Part shown: positions 6,239-41,533 of the stretch, in pieces
Layout of the letters: the number at the start of each line of letters is the position of its first letter
Numbering within the stretch: the stretch's first letter is position 1
DNA from: a virus
Virus record (IMG/VR): IMGVR_UViG_3300045988_141214
Location: 1-41,533 of that record
DNA length: 41,533 bases
Strand: one strand, 5' to 3'
Translations under genes and position numbers: made by a program
Notes under the pieces: generated by a model
What the model saw: only the letters and a program-made list of their open reading frames with translations
What the model was told of the DNA's origin: nothing
Databases searched by the model: none

Positions 6239-6410
6239 GATGCACTACCTTCTTTCGCTTGGGCTTGTTCATGGCGTACCAGGCCTTTCCGTATTCCGCC
6301 TTGCATGAGCGGCACATGGCCTGGTATCCGTCCTTGCTGTTCTTCTTCTTGTGGAACTCGGATATGGGCAGCAACTTTCCGCACTACCCGCATCGCTTCA
6401 CCTCTGGCAC
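6231..6410 (-). pseudogene. CxxC...CxxC Zn-ribbon protein with an in-frame TAG inside the first CxxC
   Basis: Hand translation from the GTG at 6410 gives VPEVKRCG*CGKLLPISEFHKKKNSKDGYQAMCRSCKAEYGKAWYAMNKPKRKKVVHHA. The TAG is at 6386-6384 and the TAA at 6233-6231. The motif CxxCGxxLPxSEF...SKDGYQxxCRxC is a recurrent phage Zn-ribbon module. Confidence 0.6.
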
Positions 6411-11438: not shown

Positions 11439-11515
11439 TGGTGCGCGCGGGCGGGCTTGAACCGCCGACCTACGGTTTAGGAGACCGTCGCTCTATCCGA
11501 CTGAGCTACGCGCGC
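11439..11515 (-). tRNA. tRNA-Arg (anticodon CCT), CCA encoded
   Basis: The reverse complement is GCGCGCGTAGCTCAGTCGGATAGAGCGACGGTCTCCTAAACCGTAGGTCGGCGGTTCAAGCCCGCCCGCGCGCACCA. It folds into a 7-bp acceptor stem, a D-arm GCTC/GAGC, an anticodon stem ACGGT/ACCGT with loop CTCCTAA, and a T-arm GGCGG/CCGCC with loop TTCAAGC. Length is 77 nt. Confidence 0.9.
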
Positions 11516-14512: not shown

Positions 14513-14554
14513 AGCCCCGCTCCCCCACAGTTTGGCGACCTGGGAAGCGGGGCT
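14513..14554 (+). terminator. hairpin downstream of the lipoprotein gene (weak terminator candidate)
   Basis: AGCCCCGCT (14513-14521) pairs with AGCGGGGCT (14546-14554), a 9-bp stem. The loop is 24 nt and there is no U-tract. Confidence 0.25.
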
Positions 14555-14594
14555 AGAGGGCCAACCACACACACGGTATGGAGGCGTATATATT

Positions 14595-15797
14595 ATGCCA
14601 CGGAAAACGCGCGCCTCATGGGGCAGCAACAAACCCGCCCGCCGCAAGGGATACCGCACCCTGCGCTACTGGGCGGACCTGCACGACGGGCGCGGTTACA
14701 TGCGCCATACGATGACGGTGGAGGGAAGCAAGCGCGACGGGGACCGCAAGCTCGCTGAGCTGCGATTGCTCCATGGCGAGGACAAGCCGGTGCCGACCAT
14801 AGAACAGGCCTGGGATTCATGGATTCTGCCCGAATACAACGCGATGCACCAGAGCTACCTCGAGAACCCGCGCCCGAGCAAGCGCGGAAGCCGAGAGAGC
14901 GTGAAGACGAGCACGTACGACCAGGTTATGTCCACATGGAGGGTCCACGTCGGCCCGCGTTGGGGCGACGTATATGCGGACGCCGTAAAATACAGCGACA
15001 TTCAGGAATGGCTCGACGGTATGACGGAGCAGGTCGGGAAACGCGCGCTATCGCAGCTGTCGCTCATACTGGACAAGTGCATGATTAACGAGTTTATCGA
15101 CAAGAACGTCGCGTCATACAAGTACCGCATGCCGACCAAGGCGAAGAAGCATGACGACGGCGGCGTGTGGTCGCTCGAGGAAATTCATTCGGAGATCCTG
15201 CCCGCAGTTAAGGGCAGGCCATGTGAGGCGGCTGTCATTCTATCGGCGATAGCCGGATGCAGGACGGGAGAGGCAGCCGCGCCGATGCTGTCCGAGGTGT
15301 ACAAGATGGAAGTAAACGGCATGACCTTCGCTTGCGCCGACATACCCAGGCAGGTGGACAACGAGGGAATCATATCGAGCGAGAACGACCTAAAGAACGT
15401 GTGGAGCCCGAGGTCCGTCGTAGTTCCTCCGCCGTGGAGCATACGTCTGCTCGAGATCAGGGACGAACTTGAGGCGAACGGGCTGCAATGGCTCAGCGAC
15501 AAGGGAACTTGTGAGCCGATGAGTCAGAGGACGATTCGCCGAGACTTCAACAAGTGCTTGAAGAAGGCCGAAGTGGAGCCACGTCAGTTCCGCGCGCTTC
15601 GCCGCTCCTGGCGTACATGGATCTCGAGCAAGGGAATCAACGACAAGATTCTCGAGAAGATGATGGGCCATTCTGACGGCACGACAACGGGCCGCTACTA
15701 CCTCAAAGCGGACGCAAAAATCATCGTTGAAGAGATGGCGAGAGCGCACGATTGGGGTGAGTTGGCGACCCGTTTAAATGACATTAGGGACAAATAG
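14595..15797 (+). CDS. int: tyrosine integrase
   Basis: The ATG at 14595 has GGAGG 10 nt upstream; the track start at 14532 is a TTG. The C-terminal catalytic region reads ...FRALRRSWRTWISS...MMGHSDGTTTGRYYL (R, H..R, H, Y pattern). It is adjacent to the repressor module. Confidence 0.85.
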   Translation: MPRKTRASWGSNKPARRKGYRTLRYWADLHDGRGYMRHTMTVEGSKRDGDRKLAELRLLHGEDKPVPTIEQAWDSWILPEYNAMHQSYLENPRPSKRGSRESVKTSTYDQVMSTWRVHVGPRWGDVYADAVKYSDIQEWLDGMTEQVGKRALSQLSLILDKCMINEFIDKNVASYKYRMPTKAKKHDDGGVWSLEEIHSEILPAVKGRPCEAAVILSAIAGCRTGEAAAPMLSEVYKMEVNGMTFACADIPRQVDNEGIISSENDLKNVWSPRSVVVPPPWSIRLLEIRDELEANGLQWLSDKGTCEPMSQRTIRRDFNKCLKKAEVEPRQFRALRRSWRTWISSKGINDKILEKMMGHSDGTTTGRYYLKADAKIIVEEMARAHDWGELATRLNDIRDK

Positions 15798-16220: not shown

Positions 16221-16298
16221 TTACTTGAGACGGGCTATCAGGTAGCTCGCCAGCGCGACGGCGCACAGCGAGCAGATGATGATGACGCCGCCCGCCAT
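16221..16298 (-). CDS. 25-aa single-TM peptide at the end of the lysis cassette
   Basis: MAGGVIIICSLCAVALASYLIARLK. Its ATG overlaps the endolysin TGA (TGATG), and GAGGG lies 9 nt upstream. Confidence 0.35.
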   Translation of the reverse strand: MAGGVIIICSLCAVALASYLIARLK

Positions 16299-17254
16299 CA
16301 GAAGCGGCCCTCGTTGAGCGCGCGCTGCATGGCCTTGACGGTCAGGGAGCCCGCGTCGAGCTTGCCGTCCTCCACCTTCGCGCCGCTCTCGGCCTTGAAG
16401 TGGCGGATCATGGCGTTGATGGTGTCGGGGCCGATGAAGCCATCGACGGGGACACCGCAGGCGCGCTGGATCGCGCCGATGGTCTGCGAGCCCGGCTGCT
16501 CGCCCCAGGGCGCGGAGAACTCCCAGCCGCCCGTGCAGGCCTTTAGGCGGTGCTTGTGCTGCGGGTTCTGGCGGGAAATCTTGCCGTCCTTGAACGGGCA
16601 GCCGAGCACCTCCTGGATGCGGCGCGTGGTGGCCTCGCCCCAGTAGCCGTCCACGGCAAGGCCATGCGGCTCGGGCGCGGGCTGCGGGGCGGGCGCGGGC
16701 TGGGGTGCCGGGGCGGGCGCGGGCTGGGGTGCCGGGGCGGACGCGCCGATGCCGAAGCAGGCGAGGATGCCCTTTGCGAGCTCGTCCATCTGCGTCTCGA
16801 ACTTGGCGGCGTCCCCTGCGTCGGAGATGAAGCCGCACTCAACCAAGCGGTAGTTCACGCCAGCGCGGGCGGCTCGGTTGACGTTGGCGAGGTCGGAGCG
16901 ACCGACGATGGTCTTGGAGCGACCTGGGAAGAACCCGCCGATGAACGCCGCCAGGGCGTTGTCTACGGCGTCGGGGCTGAAGCCGTCCTTGATGATGACG
17001 TGGCCGCCCTTGGCACCCGCGCCCGCGCTGTCCATGTGCAGCTCGATGACGGGGACGCCCTTGGGGCAGTGGCCGCGACCGATGCCGTTGTCCTTGTACC
17101 AGTTGCGGGAAGTGTCGCCGACCTGCACCTCGGAGCCGCCGAGGGCCTGCATGCGGGCGGCGAGCTTGCGGACCTGGTCCGCCTCGCGGAAGCCGTTGGC
17201 GCATGCGCCGGGGTCGCCAGCGCCGTGGCCGCAGATCACGAATACCTTAGCCAT
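16298..17254 (-). CDS. endolysin: N-acetylmuramoyl-L-alanine amidase (Amidase_3-like) plus PAPQ linker plus two PG-binding-like repeats
   Basis: 318-aa ORF. The N-terminal domain has VFVICGHGAGDPGA...ELHMDS...ECGFISD. The C-terminus has two xVDGxxGxxT motifs (LAVDGYWGEATTRRIQ, VPVDGFIGPDTINAMI). Confidence 0.85.
   Translation of the reverse strand: MAKVFVICGHGAGDPGACANGFREADQVRKLAARMQALGGSEVQVGDTSRNWYKDNGIGRGHCPKGVPVIELHMDSAGAGAKGGHVIIKDGFSPDAVDNALAAFIGGFFPGRSKTIVGRSDLANVNRAARAGVNYRLVECGFISDAGDAAKFETQMDELAKGILACFGIGASAPAPQPAPAPAPQPAPAPQPAPEPHGLAVDGYWGEATTRRIQEVLGCPFKDGKISRQNPQHKHRLKACTGGWEFSAPWGEQPGSQTIGAIQRACGVPVDGFIGPDTINAMIRHFKAESGAKVEDGKLDAGSLTVKAMQRALNEGRF
16673..16738. repeat. GC-rich tandem repeat encoding the endolysin Pro/Ala/Gln linker
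   Basis: The 24-bp unit GGGCGCGGGCTGGGGTGCCGGGGC occurs at 16691-16714 and 16715-16738, preceded by an 18-bp partial copy at 16673-16690. Confidence 0.9.
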
Positions 17255-17898: not shown

Positions 17899-18013
17899 TG
17901 GCGTAAATCACCTCCCGCCTTCTCCTAGGCGCGATGAAACGACCGCCCTCCCCCGCTACGGGCGCGAGGTCGCGGCATGAAGAAGCGGCCCCCGAGGGAG
18001 CCGCCGTACGCGG

Positions 18014-18067
18014 AAAATCCCAGACCGTTCCGCCCTGAAATGCGGGGATACGGTCTGGGATTTTTTT
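18014..18067 (+). terminator. strong intrinsic-terminator-like hairpin just upstream of the recombinase gene
   Basis: ATCCCAGACCGT (18017-18028) pairs with ACGGTCTGGGAT (18050-18061), a 12-bp stem with an inner CCGC/GCGG extension. It is followed by T7 (18061-18067) on the + strand and preceded by A4, so the - strand reads it with a T4 tract. Confidence 0.6.
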
Positions 18068-18085
18068 CGTTGAAAGGACTATGAG

Positions 18086-18967
18086 ATGCTGTTTGAAACC
18101 GCCATCGAGATGTACATGGCCGACCGCGCCAAGCGCCTTCGCGCCACCACACTCGAGGGCTACGAGAGCGCCATCCGCAAGCACATCGCCCCGGCGTGGA
18201 CGGGGCGCGAGGTCGAGTCGATCACGCACGAGGAGCTGCAATCGTGGGTGGACTCCATCGAGCTTCCCGGCGCGGCCGACAAGGCATTCAAGACCTTCCG
18301 CCAGATCTACCGCTGGACGATCCGCAAGCACCAGCTGCGCATCTGGGACGTGACGCAGGGCATCGAGCTGCCGAAGCACAGACCGGAGAAGCGCGCCCGC
18401 ATGACCCCGGAGGAGCTGCGCGAGATGCTGCGCGCCATCGAGGGGACCGTCGTGGAGGCGGTCGGCATCGCCATCGCGGCGCTCGGCCTACGGCCCTCGG
18501 AGGGAGCGGGGCTCGACTGGTCGGACATCGACTGGCGCACGGGGTGGACGCACATCCAGCGCGGCGCGCACACGGTTAAGGGCGGCGCCGTCGTGGAGTA
18601 CGCGTGCAAGACGGAGCTGTCCGACAGATGGCTCAAGCTGCCGCGATGGGCGCTCGCTCAGCTCCGCAGACTGCGAGGAAACCGCAGGTCGGGCAGGCTG
18701 CGCGGGGAACTCTCCCCGAAGTGCATCTACTCGCGCCTCAAGCGCATATTCGTGCGGATCGGCCTGCCGGAGATCTCGGTGCAGGCCCTGCGGCACACGT
18801 GGGCGACCATCGCCATCGAGGCCGGGGCGGCGCTCGCGGACGTGGCGGTCGCGCTCGGCCACACGAGCGTGGAGATGTGCAGGCGCCACTACCTGCTGAG
18901 CACGAGGGCGGTGGTTGAGCGAGCGCAGGCCGCCTTCTCGGGGGCGGTGGTTCCGCTGTTGGCGTGA
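18086..18967 (+). CDS. XerC/D-like tyrosine recombinase; candidate shufflon invertase
   Basis: 293-aa ORF with an N-terminal SAM-like domain. The catalytic pattern is GLRPSEG (R), ALRHTWAT (H-x-x-R type box) and LGHTSVEMCRRHY (H...Y). Its TGA is immediately followed by the first recombination-site repeat. Confidence 0.85.
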   Translation: MLFETAIEMYMADRAKRLRATTLEGYESAIRKHIAPAWTGREVESITHEELQSWVDSIELPGAADKAFKTFRQIYRWTIRKHQLRIWDVTQGIELPKHRPEKRARMTPEELREMLRAIEGTVVEAVGIAIAALGLRPSEGAGLDWSDIDWRTGWTHIQRGAHTVKGGAVVEYACKTELSDRWLKLPRWALAQLRRLRGNRRSGRLRGELSPKCIYSRLKRIFVRIGLPEISVQALRHTWATIAIEAGAALADVAVALGHTSVEMCRRHYLLSTRAVVERAQAAFSGAVVPLLA

Positions 18968-18980
18968 TTCCGTAGACCAG
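18968..18980 (+). repeat. recombination-site repeat 1 (TTCCGTAGACCAG)
   Basis: It is identical over 13 nt to site 4 and shares the 7-nt core TTCCGTA with sites 2, 3 and 5. Confidence 0.8.
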
Positions 18981-19118
18981 ATGCCGTTGAAGAACGACAG
19001 CATCAAGAAGTTGGTGTTCCAGATTTACAAGTCAGGGAGCACAAGCTATTTCCAAGCCGGTGCCAGCCTCCCAGAAGGCGGGACGAAAACAATCAACATC
19101 GACACTTGGACGAATTAG
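18969..19118 (+). other. silent tail-fibre tip cassette A (49 codons plus TAG)
   Basis: From TCC GTA the frame reads SVDQMPLKNDSIKKLVFQIYKSGSTSYFQAGASLPEGGTKTINIDTWTN*. It has no start codon or RBS of its own. Confidence 0.7.
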
Positions 19119-19120
19119 TC

Positions 19121-19131
19121 TTCCGTATCCC
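19121..19131 (+). repeat. recombination-site repeat 2 (TTCCGTATCCC)
   Basis: It is an 11-nt identity with site 3 and with the reverse complement of 20037-20047. It starts 2 nt after the cassette A TAG (19116-19118); the in-frame TCC GTA codons start 3 nt after it. Confidence 0.8.
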
Positions 19132-19313
19132 TTTCCGCGCGGCGCGAGGGGGCGGCCGATGCGTTCGTGGGGGCCAACAAGACCGCCGGGCACTGCGTTG
19201 ACGTTATGGCGCAAAGCTCGCTCGGCAGATACATCCTGTTCGCGACCGTCGACTCACTCGAGCTGTGGGACGGGGCTAAGAACACGAAAGTTTGGCGCCT
19301 CAACACTAAATAG
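19122..19313 (+). other. silent tail-fibre tip cassette B (63 codons plus TAG)
   Basis: SVSLSARREGAADAFVGANKTAGHCVDVMAQSSLGRYILFATVDSLELWDGAKNTKVWRLNTK*. It has no start codon or RBS. Confidence 0.7.
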
Positions 19314-19315
19314 CC

Positions 19316-19326
19316 TTCCGTATCCC
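19316..19326 (+). repeat. recombination-site repeat 3 (TTCCGTATCCC)
   Basis: It is identical to site 2 and starts 2 nt after the cassette B TAG (19311-19313); the in-frame TCC GTA codons start 3 nt after it. Confidence 0.8.
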
Positions 19327-19511
19327 GACTGTCTTTCGACGGCATCAATGGCGTCGAGTTTGTCAACGCACTTCGCTCCGGCTATCCGGGCATAGCATTT
19401 CAGATCGCGGATGGTAAGACGTATCTGCTCTACACGACGGCGGACGGTCTTGTCCTCTACGATCGCAATGAGGCAAGAGCGGTCGGCAGCATCCAGTGGA
19501 ACAAGGCCTAG
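19317..19511 (+). other. silent tail-fibre tip cassette C (64 codons plus TAG)
   Basis: SVSRLSFDGINGVEFVNALRSGYPGIAFQIADGKTYLLYTTADGLVLYDRNEARAVGSIQWNKA*. It resembles cassette B (G[KR]xY[IL]L[FY]xTxDxLxL[YW]D). Confidence 0.7.
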
Positions 19512-19513
19512 CT

Positions 19514-19526
19514 TTCCGTAGACCAG
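19514..19526 (+). repeat. recombination-site repeat 4 (TTCCGTAGACCAG)
   Basis: It is identical to site 1 and starts 2 nt after the cassette C TAG (19509-19511); the in-frame TCC GTA codons start 3 nt after it. Confidence 0.8.
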
Positions 19527-19760
19527 CTCCCCTTCGTTGCAAGATACGGTTCCCAAAGCTCTCTGGACGACCTCAAATACGGGCTGGTACCCTTCGACAG
19601 CAGTACGCCGGGCGCCACCTCTTCGCAGTACGGCATCGTGCTCGCGTATATGACCGAATCCGAGGCATGGGTCTACCAGGTGGCGTTCTCGACAAACGGC
19701 AAGGTCCACAAGCGCCGCAAGATCAACGCGGCTGGCTGGACGGAATGGGAGCTGCTATAG
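19515..19760 (+). other. silent tail-fibre tip cassette D (81 codons plus TAG)
   Basis: SVDQLPFVARYGSQSSLDDLKYGLVPFDSSTPGATSSQYGIVLAYMTESEAWVYQVAFSTNGKVHKRRKINAAGWTEWELL*. It resembles the expressed tip (S[DS]QYG...; W near the C-terminus). It lies tail-to-tail with the expressed gene end at 19780. Confidence 0.7.
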
Positions 19761-19779
19761 GAGGCTTCCGGTCTCGACG

Positions 19780-20310
19780 CTACTCCTTTATCCACGAGCC
19801 GCCCGACAGCTTCCAAGACGCGAACCCCCTGGAATAACCGAACTCGATGAAGGCGCCGTATTGGTCAGAGTGCTTGTACGCGATTCCGCACATCGCCTGG
19901 CCATTCGAATCGGCCACGGTCCACAGGATTGTGGGCGTGAACGTCTTGATGGAGGGCCACGTCCTCGTGAGCATCAGGTCCGTGGTCTCCGATTGGGACT
20001 GCCAGAGCGCCCGCTTCGATTCGATATTTCCGATTTGGGATACGGAATCCCGGAGCGCATTGACTGCGGCGGTCAGGTCGGCCACGCCCTGCTCGAGTCG
20101 GTTCAGCTCGGCCGCCGTGACGGGGGTGCCGCCGCCGCTGCCGTCATTCCACGTCTTCTTGGCGAAGCTCACGGCACTCGCGAGCGTGCCGGCGGTGTAG
20201 CCCAGCTCCGGGATGACGGTCGGCACGTCCATGAGGCCAGGGGCCTCGGGCACGACGGACATTCCGGGGTCGATCTCGGGGGTCTGCTCGATGATGGTCT
20301 CTTCTGCCAT
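19780..20310 (-). CDS. tail fibre / receptor-binding tip protein carrying the expressed variable C-terminus
   Basis: The start is trimmed to the ATG at 20310, with AGGAGA 7 nt upstream. The 176-aa product has a constant part ...GTPVTAAELNRLEQGVADLTAAVNALRDSV, and the switch point lies at the inverted site. Confidence 0.75.
   Translation of the reverse strand: MAEETIIEQTPEIDPGMSVVPEAPGLMDVPTVIPELGYTAGTLASAVSFAKKTWNDGSGGGTPVTAAELNRLEQGVADLTAAVNALRDSVSQIGNIESKRALWQSQSETTDLMLTRTWPSIKTFTPTILWTVADSNGQAMCGIAYKHSDQYGAFIEFGYSRGFASWKLSGGSWIKE
20037..20051 (-). repeat. recombination-site repeat 5, inverted, inside the expressed fibre gene (GGGATTCCGTATCCC on the - strand)
   Basis: The + strand reads gggatacggaatccc. 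The - strand encodes R-D-S-V-S-Q in the fibre frame. TCC GTA (Ser-Val) is in the same codon phase as in all four cassettes. Confidence 0.85.
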
Positions 20311-20324
20311 TTTCGGTCTCCTGT

Positions 20325-20936
20325 CTAGACGGTGAACTTGCTCCACTCGCCCGTGGGTGCGGGGAACGTCGTGGATTGCGGGTAGGTCGTCGCGGACGGG
20401 TACAGCGCCGCGCCCTGCTTGGCGGAGTCCCAGCGGTTGATGCTCCTGACCGCCGTTCCCGCCGTCTCCACCCACATGCCGCCGTCCACGCGGTCGGCGT
20501 AGGGCGGCTCGGACTGCTGGATGAAGTAGGGCTTGGTCAGGCGCGCTGCGGCGTTGGCCTGGGCCGCCGCCGCTTTGGCCGCGTTCGCCTGCGTGTTCGC
20601 GTTTGCAGCGTTGGCGTTCGCGGACTGCGCGGCAGACGATGCCGAGAGCGCGGCGGTGTTCGCGGCCTTTGTTGCGGCGTCGCGCTCGGCGTCCTTGGCT
20701 GCGCGCTCAGCCTCATTTGATTGGCGGATTGCCTCGTTAGTGCCGCGCTCTAGCTCAGACTCCTTGCGCGCATTCTCGTTGGCGACGCGAGCCGCCTCGG
20801 CCTTGCCGTCCGCACCCGCGATCATGTACGTCTGTTTTCCGCCGTCGCTCTGGTTGACCTCGATGCCCCAGACCTCGCCGTCGAACGTCACGTCCGATGG
20901 CGCGCGCACGAGGAACTTGTCTTCAGAACCTGCCAT
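20325..20936 (-). CDS. tail fibre-like protein with an Ala/Asn-rich coiled coil
   Basis: The start is trimmed to the ATG at 20936, with GGAG 7 nt upstream; the track start at 20996 is a TTG. A central low-complexity A/N/Q coiled coil is typical of fibre shafts. Confidence 0.6.
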   Translation of the reverse strand: MAGSEDKFLVRAPSDVTFDGEVWGIEVNQSDGGKQTYMIAGADGKAEAARVANENARKESELERGTNEAIRQSNEAERAAKDAERDAATKAANTAALSASSAAQSANANAANANTQANAAKAAAAQANAAARLTKPYFIQQSEPPYADRVDGGMWVETAGTAVRSINRWDSAKQGAALYPSATTYPQSTTFPAPTGEWSKFTV

Positions 20937-21273: not shown

Positions 21274-22386
21274 TTACGACCTCCTCCTGAACACGCGCAC
21301 CTCCGAATCGACGGCGCAACCGCCGCCGAGCGTCAACGTCTGCGCCCTGACCTGGAATCTTCCTTGGACGCCTCCGGCCTCGTACGAGATGTCAACTGTG
21401 TCGTTCACCTTCACGGGGATGTACGGATGCCGTAAGCTGAGACGCCAGATGACCGACTGTGCCGTGGACAGCAGGGTCTTGGCGCGCTTGTCCGCATAGG
21501 ACTGCATCTCGCCATCGTTCTTTCCTGGAGGAAGGTCCATGTACGAATAGCCGCGCGTGATGGTCCTGCCGCGCCTCACCGTCGAAAGCGGGCTGTCTGG
21601 GCTGCGGTCCCAGGCCTCCGACGCGATTACCTTGCCGTTCTCGTCGGGCCCGTAAATGACGACCACGTGGTTGGCCGCATTCGTGTAGTCGCGCTCCTCC
21701 TCGATAGCTGGGTCCAACCTAACGTTGGGGTCGCCCTGGGAGAACGACCAGGATGGCGCGATCTCGCCGGGGTCGCGGTACTTCTCGAAGACGACTCGGC
21801 CCATCGGGTCGGTGAACGCCGCGCGGAACCCTGCGAGGTCGAGCAGGTCGTTCACCATGTCGAGCTTCGTATCGCCTATTTCAGAGTTGTTCTGCTCCGC
21901 GCCGATGCCGTAAGCCCTGGTGTCCGTGACCGTGTAGTCGCTGGGCTCAGCGACGACCGTTAGGCCGCACCCCTCGCACACGCGCTTCGCCACCGCAACC
22001 GCGTTCTCTCCCTTGGAGACTGTCACGGGGGCAGAGAATCGGTCGTCAAGCAGCTCTTGCAGACGACCGTACATGCGGACGCTAGCCGTCGAGTACCCCG
22101 CCCTGATGGAACGCCCAGGGACAACGGGGAGGAAGGTGCCGAGCACGACCTCCTCGGTCTCCCCTCCCGACCATTCAACGGTCATGTAGACCCTCACTAG
22201 GTCTGGGCCGAAATCTACCTCTCCGACCATGGGGAACTCGGCGCTCTCCTTGATGCGGGTGTCGTCGTTCCTCGTGACCACTCCGCCCTTGAAGGCGTTG
22301 AGGACGGCGGTCTCGAGCCCCGTCTTGCGGTCCACTCGCATGAAGCGGTAGCTCGTGTTCGTGAACCTCTCGCTCCACCTAGCCAT
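21274..22386 (-). CDS. minor tail protein (Tal / prophage-tail-endopeptidase-like position)
   Basis: 370-aa ORF, the second gene after the tape measure gene. The assignment rests mainly on position. Confidence 0.45.
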   Translation of the reverse strand: MARWSERFTNTSYRFMRVDRKTGLETAVLNAFKGGVVTRNDDTRIKESAEFPMVGEVDFGPDLVRVYMTVEWSGGETEEVVLGTFLPVVPGRSIRAGYSTASVRMYGRLQELLDDRFSAPVTVSKGENAVAVAKRVCEGCGLTVVAEPSDYTVTDTRAYGIGAEQNNSEIGDTKLDMVNDLLDLAGFRAAFTDPMGRVVFEKYRDPGEIAPSWSFSQGDPNVRLDPAIEEERDYTNAANHVVVIYGPDENGKVIASEAWDRSPDSPLSTVRRGRTITRGYSYMDLPPGKNDGEMQSYADKRAKTLLSTAQSVIWRLSLRHPYIPVKVNDTVDISYEAGGVQGRFQVRAQTLTLGGGCAVDSEVRVFRRRS

Positions 22387-41479: not shown

Positions 41480-41533
41480 CATATGCTAGCCGCATTGCTA
41501 CGTGCATATGCTAGCCGCATTGCTACGTGCATA
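41480..41533 (+). repeat. right part of the 25-bp tandem repeat array
   Basis: Full units at 41480-41504 and 41505-41529, then a partial CATA. nt 41496-41533 are identical to nt 1-38. Confidence 0.95.

Follow-up and report, generated by a model that had tools for sequence, protein, structure and literature searches.

Five TTCCGTA repeats in a phage tail-fibre locus as probable crossover sites of a Rin-type shufflon

In IMG/VR virus record IMGVR_UViG_3300045988_141214 (positions 1 to 41,533; this whole 41,533-nucleotide stretch is referred to below as the window), a tyrosine-recombinase gene, rin, is followed by four silent 3' cassettes, each headed by a short asymmetric repeat, then by a convergent, expressed cassette and the 5' part of a tail-fibre gene. 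A fifth copy of the repeat lies inside the fibre gene in the opposite orientation, and all five copies contain the heptamer TTCCGTA. The question raised by this locus is what these repeats do. A first-pass annotation of the sequence had read them as recombination sites of a multiple inversion, comparable to the sfx sites of R64 recognized by Rci. We find that the repeats are best explained, with a probability of about 0.9 as judged from sequence comparison, as crossover (rix) sites of a Rin-type shufflon that varies the tip of the tail fibre. Such shufflons have been described in prophages of Bifidobacterium breve and B. longum, which carry rin, Rv cassettes, Rc, and an 11-bp asymmetric rix of sequence TTCCCTAACCC (Mavrich et al. 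2018, PMC6109161).

Anatomy of the sites

The five sites, their positions, and their common TTCCGTA stand as first reported (Table 1), as does the TAG located 2 nt ahead of the cores of sites 2-4 (19116-18, 19311-13, and 19509-11). The repetition does not arise by chance. The degenerate 11-mer TTCCGTAKMCC has five exact matches in the window against an expectation of 0.03 +/- 0.17, none of 100 shuffles reaches five, and all five matches fall within 1.1 kb (18968-20047). Outside the locus, the search for further copies of TTCCGTA(T/G)(C/A)CC that had been proposed with the original reading returned none in the 41.5-kb window. The bare heptamer TTCCGTA occurs nine times in the window, where about two copies are expected, and the four off-locus copies (at 6287, 27078, 35258, and 37923) are compatible with chance. 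When one mismatch is allowed in the 11-mer, the only addition is 6287-6297 (+; TTCCGTATTCC, 10/11), which is remote from the shufflon and probably a chance match.

To place these sites in a wider context, we used a set of 87 unique sites from 19 related loci (69 at cassettes and 18 in Rc, the constant part of the fibre gene), in which a site was retained only if it carried C at position +3. The core is uniform within each of the 19 loci and takes five forms between them (TTCCGTA, TTCCATA, ATCCGTA, TTCCTTG, and TTCCCTA), in keeping with the 7-bp core proposed at the outset. The identity within loci could have been a circular artefact of finding sites by their core. This was ruled out by a scan that used the arms only, (TAGNN or NGGGA)-N7-(T/A)CCC, which returned the locus-specific core plus a few singletons and no second core within a locus. 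Since positions -1 and +1 vary within the window, the stretch that must match is c1-c7, and these comparisons support a role of the 7-bp TTCCGTA as strand-exchange spacer. The variable core positions c1, c5, and c7 correspond to codon positions 3, 1, and 3, and the peptide (D/E)-S-(V/I/L) is kept.

The right arm is short. Among the 87 sites it reads TCCC in 72, ACCC (the Bifidobacterium-type arm) in 10, GACC in 2, and GGCC, TGCC, and TCCA in 1 each, with C at +3 in 87/87 by selection of the set. Past this arm (+5..+14), the information content does not exceed 0.4 bit for the 69 cassette sites or 0.9 bit for the 18 Rc sites, and the conserved right arm is thus 4 bp long (+1..+4). The two exact right-arm classes of the first-pass annotation, GACCAG and TCCC, hold within the window and do not extend beyond it: GACC is a rare variant, found only at two sites of the window, and GACCAG differs by 2 nt from the commonest 6-mer, TCCCAG, which is also what the homologue of cassette A carries in the related locus L028. 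The codon that follows TCC holds its first base constant even as its residue changes (Q, R, L, P, or H).

The left arms, by contrast with the original description of them as unconserved, turn out to be under constraint. At cassette sites, position -4 is a purine in 69/69 and position -3 is G in 59/69, each of the two carrying 1.3 bits, and TAG occupies -5..-3 in 48/69, compared with 28% TAG among the long open reading frames (ORFs) of the window. At site 1, the TGA of rin (18965-18967) abuts the core and sits in the left arm, and the left arm of the rin-proximal site is GTGA in all close relatives. Cassette left arms are therefore degenerate but constrained, weakly yet clearly, as TAG-N2 or as GTGA beside rin. 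The fibre-gene site has GGGA in every complete locus examined, one truncated contig excepted, although the codon holding the GG encodes R, G, or W. The rin-proximal site also has GGGA in two distant relatives, L005 and L016, and in L016 it lies in non-coding DNA. Because GGGA is kept despite the R/G/W codon change and in the non-coding context of L016, it is a DNA-level signal. The full site is GGGA-N7-(T/A)CCC. The perfect GGGAT/ATCCC inverted repeat noted at site 5 is a palindrome specific to its clade and not a general feature. A general model of a 5-bp spacer with 5-bp arms GGGAT/ATCCC was rejected, since the fifth arm position is non-complementary in the ATCCGTA clade and in Bifidobacterium-type sites (…TTCCGTA-ACCC).

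Cassettes, rearrangements, and recombinase

When the constant part of the fibre (..NALRDSV) is joined at the core to each + segment of the window, all four give open frames (4/4, 138-170 residues). The same holds for relatives: in six closely related arrays, 39/39 cassettes are open (45-97 aa), with SV as their first residues, and the peptide across the junction, DS(V/I/L)S, is conserved. Rc and cassette E together form a 176-aa gene (20310-19780, -), which is gene-called as such in identical contigs and of which residues 48-95 match PHROG 5711, “head fiber protein” (E 2e-10). No match to H-type lectin was found for the window cassettes in Pfam. Between cassettes D and E there is no site; the 19-bp gap between them contains TTCCGGT (19766-19772, +), 5 nt past the TAG of cassette D, which matches the core at 5/7 positions, lacks a CC arm, and may be a decayed site or a chance match.

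Evidence for recombination comes from close relatives, whose Rin falls in the same 90% cluster (98-99% protein identity for loci L012, L017, L021, and L023; 93% rin DNA identity for L028). Their flanks are 93-97% identical and their arrays are different. Cassette B (19121-19327) has copies that are 95-97% identical in L021 (6008-6214, slot 7, +) and L023 (321-526, slot 1, +) and is inverted in L028 (7538-7328, 95.7% identity), with homology starting at one core and stopping at the next. A homologue of cassette A, 86% identical, occupies slot 2 of L028. Similarly, L012 6420-6956 corresponds to inverted L017 3243-2707 (95.7% over 537 bp), with cores at both ends. In the catalogue of the 39 cassettes from the six arrays, five of the nine shared families are seen in both orientations. 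Two of these five, family 8 (L012 vs L017 and L023) and family 16 (L021 vs L028), differ in state between phages, being either silent or Rc-fused, and a third family, 9, is Rc-fused in L012 and silent in L028 with its orientation unchanged. Altogether, rearranged cassettes in relatives have their junctions at the repeats, as expected if these are recombination sites of a multiple inversion.

All arrays examined are oriented as (+)^a(-)^b and converge at a single point. Inversion between cassettes with sites at their heads preserves exactly this pattern, and the convergence of D and E in the window fits it. Orientation patterns were also considered as a test of whether any inverted pair or only the Rc site recombines, and were discarded as such because both predict (+)^a(-)^b. 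Arrays reach 12 sites in L028 (4883-7680), 10 in L018 (4310-6605), and 9 in L021 (4883-6732), with up to 9 direct-repeat sites on the - strand (L018) and 8 on the + strand (L021). The persistence of up to 9 direct-repeat sites suggests that deletion between direct sites is rare or selected against. At the other extreme, the distant relatives L005 (6572/7253) and L016 (1685/2338), whose Rin is 51-54% identical, are two-site switches in which both sites have the palindromic arms, GGGA-TTCCATA-TCCC. Some cassettes are diverged paralogues, e.g., SVSRNARIEGASYAAVGANKTSNH (L017 2511) and SVSLSARREGAADAFVGANKTAGH (window 19121, cassette B), which suggests that duplication followed by divergence shapes the cassette pool in addition to exchange.

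A Rin-type recombinase adjoins the array in every case examined. All 121 aligned family members share R136, K175, R236, H259, and Y269. The protein ends 24 residues past the catalytic Tyr269, which leaves no room for a C-terminal domain of the Rci type. Consistent with this, Rin has no match to plasmid Rci/IncI at E<=1e-3 among 72,556 plasmids, and its best NCBIfam matches (XerA, XerD, and XerC) are far below cut-offs. Rin belongs instead to a large unnamed family of ~290-aa proteins; of the candidates examined, 336 reached E<=1e-10. Among annotated phage genes, the nearest are the “integrases” of Bifidobacterium phage PMBT6 and Siphoviridae ctl617. The PMBT6 gene in the rin position is 34% identical to window Rin over the full length (E 2e-50), and both phages have a matching locus layout, with TAGCT-TTCCGTA-ACCC sites and ctgtGGGA-TTCCGTA-ACCC in the fibre gene. 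Rin is an “armless”, XerD-sized recombinase and presumptive invertase, distinct from the phage integrase.

Table 1. Predicted features of the shufflon locus and its surroundings in the window
Feature	Position	Strand	Description
rin	18086-18967	+	293-aa tyrosine recombinase; Pfam Phage_int_SAM_3 and Phage_integrase only
rix site 1	18964-18980	+	gtgaTTCCGTAGACCAG; left arm GTGA, core 18968-18974, right arm GACC(AG)
Silent cassette A	18975-19118	+	48 C-terminal residues after ..DSV
rix site 2	19117-19131	+	agtcTTCCGTATCCC; left arm AGTC (TAG of cassette A), core 19121-19127, right arm TCCC
Silent cassette B	19128-19313	+	62 residues, in frame
rix site 3	19312-19326	+	agccTTCCGTATCCC; left arm AGCC, core 19316-19322, right arm TCCC
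Silent cassette C	19323-19511	+	63 residues, in frame with Rc at the core
rix site 4	19510-19526	+	agctTTCCGTAGACCAG; left arm AGCT, core 19514-19520, right arm GACC(AG)
Silent cassette D	19521-19760	+	80 residues, in frame; convergent with E
Cassette E	19780-20040	-	Currently Rc-fused; 86 residues and stop; from ORF and translation
rix site 5, expression site	20051-20037	-	GGGATTCCGTATCCC; two-armed GGGA-TTCCGTA-TCCC in the fibre gene, codons R-D-S-V-S
Rc, constant N-terminal part of tail-fibre/receptor-binding protein	20048-20310	-	~88 residues, ..TPVTAAELNRLEQGVADLTAAVNALRD; ORF with ribosome-binding site (RBS)
Second, larger integrase	14532-15797		400-421 aa; separate from Rin, beside the lysis module
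Tail protein	21274-22386		PHROG 1887; the fibre gene sits between tail genes and the lysis cassette

Proposed mechanism and competing explanations

We propose that Rin, as the presumptive enzyme, would bind the short arms flanking the asymmetric 7-bp TTCCGTA and exchange strands inside this spacer, at cleavage positions that are predicted to lie there. Four + sites head promoterless cassettes and one - site lies within the tail-fibre gene. Assuming that the system is active today, recombination of the fibre-gene site with an oppositely oriented cassette site would invert the intervening DNA and fuse the constant N-terminus (..LRDSV) in frame to another C-terminal tip of 48-86 residues. The outcome would be five alternative fibre proteins, presumably differing in receptor or host specificity. 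In each exchange, the right arm would move with the cassette and the left arm would stay put. The fibre-gene site would act as a full site (GGGA-N7-TCCC) and the cassette sites as half-sites, their weak left arm being supplied by the preceding TAG and 2 nt.

A tentative extension, which we hold to be possible and on balance doubtful, is that this amounts to a two-tier design. Full terminal or expression sites would be set against half-sites with TAG left arms that mimic only the R-G of GGGA. Such an arrangement could make a 290-aa Xer-like enzyme inversion-only without an Rci-like domain, in that long direct-repeat arrays would be shielded from deletion, and it might favour productive exchanges between Rc and a cassette. 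If the design holds, Rin and its 15-bp sites would form a compact shufflon tool that is mechanistically distinct from Rci, and the directionality question raised by Mavrich et al. would be answered.

Several observations weigh against a working Rin shufflon in the window. A conserved arm of 4 bp is unusually short for the site of a tyrosine recombinase. The canonical His of the HxxR box (Rin residue 233) is replaced in the family (T in 74, E in 29, Q in 9, and others, among 121 aligned sequences), and catalysis therefore cannot simply be assumed from Cre or Xer. Searches of Pfam and PHROGs gave no informative match for the cassette-encoded domains, only the N-terminal fibre motif. Loci L009-L011, from three of the five contigs with identical Rin, are colinear with the window and include no inversion isomer. 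Finally, the sharing of cassettes could partly reflect exchange between phages and not intramolecular inversion.

The colinear contigs would also fit a fossil shufflon, in which the sites and cassettes date from past Rin recombination and inversion no longer occurs, for example owing to the degenerate GACC arms of sites 1 and 4 or to a weak enzyme. The confinement of GACC arms to the window among the 87 sites points the same way. However, consensus assemblies give the majority isomer only, so colinearity of identical contigs is weak evidence. Furthermore, rin is intact with all family-invariant catalytic residues, the five cores are perfect, all cassettes are open, and relatives of the same 90% cluster differ in isomer and cassette state, all of which makes loss of activity unlikely. 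A shufflon of the R64 type, by which we mean membership of the Rci family together with a mechanism that relies on the C-terminal domain to bring another monomer to a non-specific left arm, would account for the 7-bp core, the conserved right arm, and the variable left arms, as in sfx (PMC11852207), as well as for arrays of up to nine direct-repeat sites, in which deletion seems to be disfavoured. It is nevertheless extremely unlikely: Rin lacks the extra C-terminal domain and resembles Xer proteins, below threshold, and no plasmid Rci; the right arm is 4 bp and not 12; the target is a phage fibre and not PilV; and each array has one symmetric site. As such, the sfx analogy drawn by the first-pass annotation survives for the asymmetry of the sites and the mode of working, and fails for membership of the Rci group.

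It may also be asked whether any site-specific recombination is needed, because core and arms lie in coding sequence, the DS(V/I/L)S junction is conserved, and cassette sets differ wholesale between 95%-identical phages. The repeat would then be the coding motif D-S-V-S-Q of paralogous fibre genes, and mosaicism would arise by homologous recombination. We consider this very unlikely, given that synonymous positions are frozen within a locus, that GG is kept across R/G/W codons and the codon base after TCC across Q/R/L/P/H, and that GGGA also occurs in the non-coding context of L016. The placement of TAG exactly at -5..-3 well above its baseline, the constant presence of a dedicated recombinase next to the array, and inversion breakpoints at 15-bp sites, too short for RecA, argue in the same direction; so do the cassette frames, which are open from the shared core and readable as Rc fusions (their own starts and RBS were not examined). 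A role of the repeats in phage integration, as binding or attachment sites for Rin acting as an integrase, is barely conceivable. The database annotation of Rin as “integrase” is what would favour it, yet a separate integrase lies beside the lysis module (Table 1), the sites are at in-frame cassette boundaries within the structural region, and Rin is XerD-sized, with SAM-like and catalytic domains only, as is Bifidobacterium Rin (PMC6109161).

Genomic setting and relation to known systems

The window ends in an exact direct repeat of 38 bp (1-38 and 41496-41533), and the identical phage appears in other assemblies as 41.6-42.1-kb contigs with different end points. It is therefore probably a complete, circularly assembled temperate phage genome of ~41.5 kb. 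Its G+C content is 63%, and the nearest Rin among species-representative genomes are those of Collinsella and Slackia (57-60% identity), with relatives also in Atopobiaceae. On these grounds, the host would be of the class Coriobacteriia, and its genus is probably other than Eggerthella. Holin and amidase lysin genes lie upstream of the locus and tail genes downstream, on the - strand. The endolysin (16298-17254, -) combines Amidase_3 and PG_binding_1 with the Pro/Ala-rich linker PAPQPAPAPAPQPAPAPQPAPEP between them; in the Rin-cluster relatives L027 and L028 the lysin is GH25/CW_7/LysM instead, making the lysis module mosaic. The phage also bears a tRNA-Arg (anticodon CCT; 11439-11515, -). 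A blastn search of 17900-20500 against 50,697 phage records found no match, so relatives there are at the protein level only. The exact 27-mer across Rc and the core has no match in IMG/VR, and the sole contig of P0001 ends ~230 bp past rin.

Five tail-fibre tips from one locus would be relevant to the host-range flexibility of phages of gut Actinobacteria. The comparison adds a sharper model of the site (a concerted 7-bp spacer, 4-bp arms, a symmetric expression site, and half-sites with embedded stop codons), cassettes that form a mobile pool shared among related phages, and a recombinase family in which the HxxR box has lost its canonical His. The site model yields testable predictions on how a Xer-sized recombinase avoids deleting up to nine direct repeats and could supply compact parts for synthetic DNA-shuffling devices.

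Among known systems, the R64 shufflon shares with this locus a multiple inversion by a tyrosine recombinase that chooses alternative C-termini of an adhesin-like protein, a 7-bp core common to all sites (here c1-c7), and the asymmetry of a strong right and a weak left arm. Its sfx site consists of a 12-bp variable left arm, the 7-bp core, and a 12-bp right arm, and the extra C-terminal domain of Rci has been linked to inversion-only behaviour (PMC11852207). Rin has no such domain, and no sequence relationship to Rci is detectable beyond the tyrosine-recombinase fold. The sites differ as well: Rin sites have 4 bp conserved in place of 12-bp arms, and the sfx left arm is variable at every site, whereas the Rc site of a Rin array has a full GGGA arm and is symmetric. 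R64 segments carry sites at both ends; Rin cassettes have one 5' site each, by which (+)^a(-)^b is kept. Gin, Cin, and Min (of Mu, P1, and p15B) resemble the locus in that a phage-encoded inversion swaps tail-fibre C-termini and alters host range, and Min also in being a multi-segment shufflon. These enzymes, however, are serine invertases that work with an enhancer and Fis, while the adjacent syntenic enzyme of the window is of the tyrosine type (serine recombinases were not sought elsewhere in the window).

The locus agrees closely with the Bifidobacterium Rin/rix system. In both, rin is followed by rix-headed Rv cassettes and then by a convergent Rc gene, and the invertase is an XerD-like, armless tyrosine recombinase separate from the integrase. 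Bifidobacterium Rin is of XerD-like size without an arm-type DNA-binding domain, and inversions at its rix have been documented in prophage and virion reads (PMC6109161). Bifidobacterium-type Rin genes are 34-40% identical to window Rin, Bb423phi1 Rin being outside this comparison. Their rix, TTCCCTAACCC, differs from TTCCGTATCCC at 2 positions, with core TTCCCTA and arm ACCC against TTCCGTA and TCCC in the window. The fibre has ~88 constant and 48-86 variable residues in the window and 168 plus 95-100 in Bifidobacterium, where a second, directly oriented rix lies past the 3' end of the full-length gene (PMC6109161); the window has none. Our site model predicts a GGGA arm for the Bifidobacterium fibre-gene rix. 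We therefore searched IMG/VR with the predicted full site GGGATTCCCTAACCC and found at least 120 loci. In 59 of these, which carry the published rix TTCCCTAACCC, the array adjoins a Rin homologue that is 35-40% identical to window Rin. TAG occupies -5..-3 of their inner sites in 52/59, and GGGA predominates at both terminal sites, although the pattern searched for already favours GGGA at one site in each locus.

A second described case is the Rin shufflon of Eggerthella lenta clade-1 prophages, with an 8-bp asymmetric repeat, ttccgtat (2022, PMC8778435). This repeat consists of the window core extended by one base, the first of the common right arm. As in the window, a tyrosine recombinase adjoins a tandem series of small Rv cassettes and an Rc gene of larger size, the repeat also occurs inverted inside Rc, and the host is of the class Coriobacteriia (for the window phage, a probable assignment); the E. 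lenta prophages were compared by published description and not by sequence. The arms, the symmetry of the Rc site, TAG as a left arm, and covariation of the core are not covered in that publication. In the window we find the hallmarks of Rin/rix: an armless ~290-aa recombinase homologous to Bifidobacterium Rin, the corresponding placement of sites, alternative and dissimilar C-termini in frame, and breakpoints at rix, the last between related genomes. The locus is thus a Rin/rix system of the kind already described, to which it adds a member from a Coriobacteriia-type phage and no new principle.

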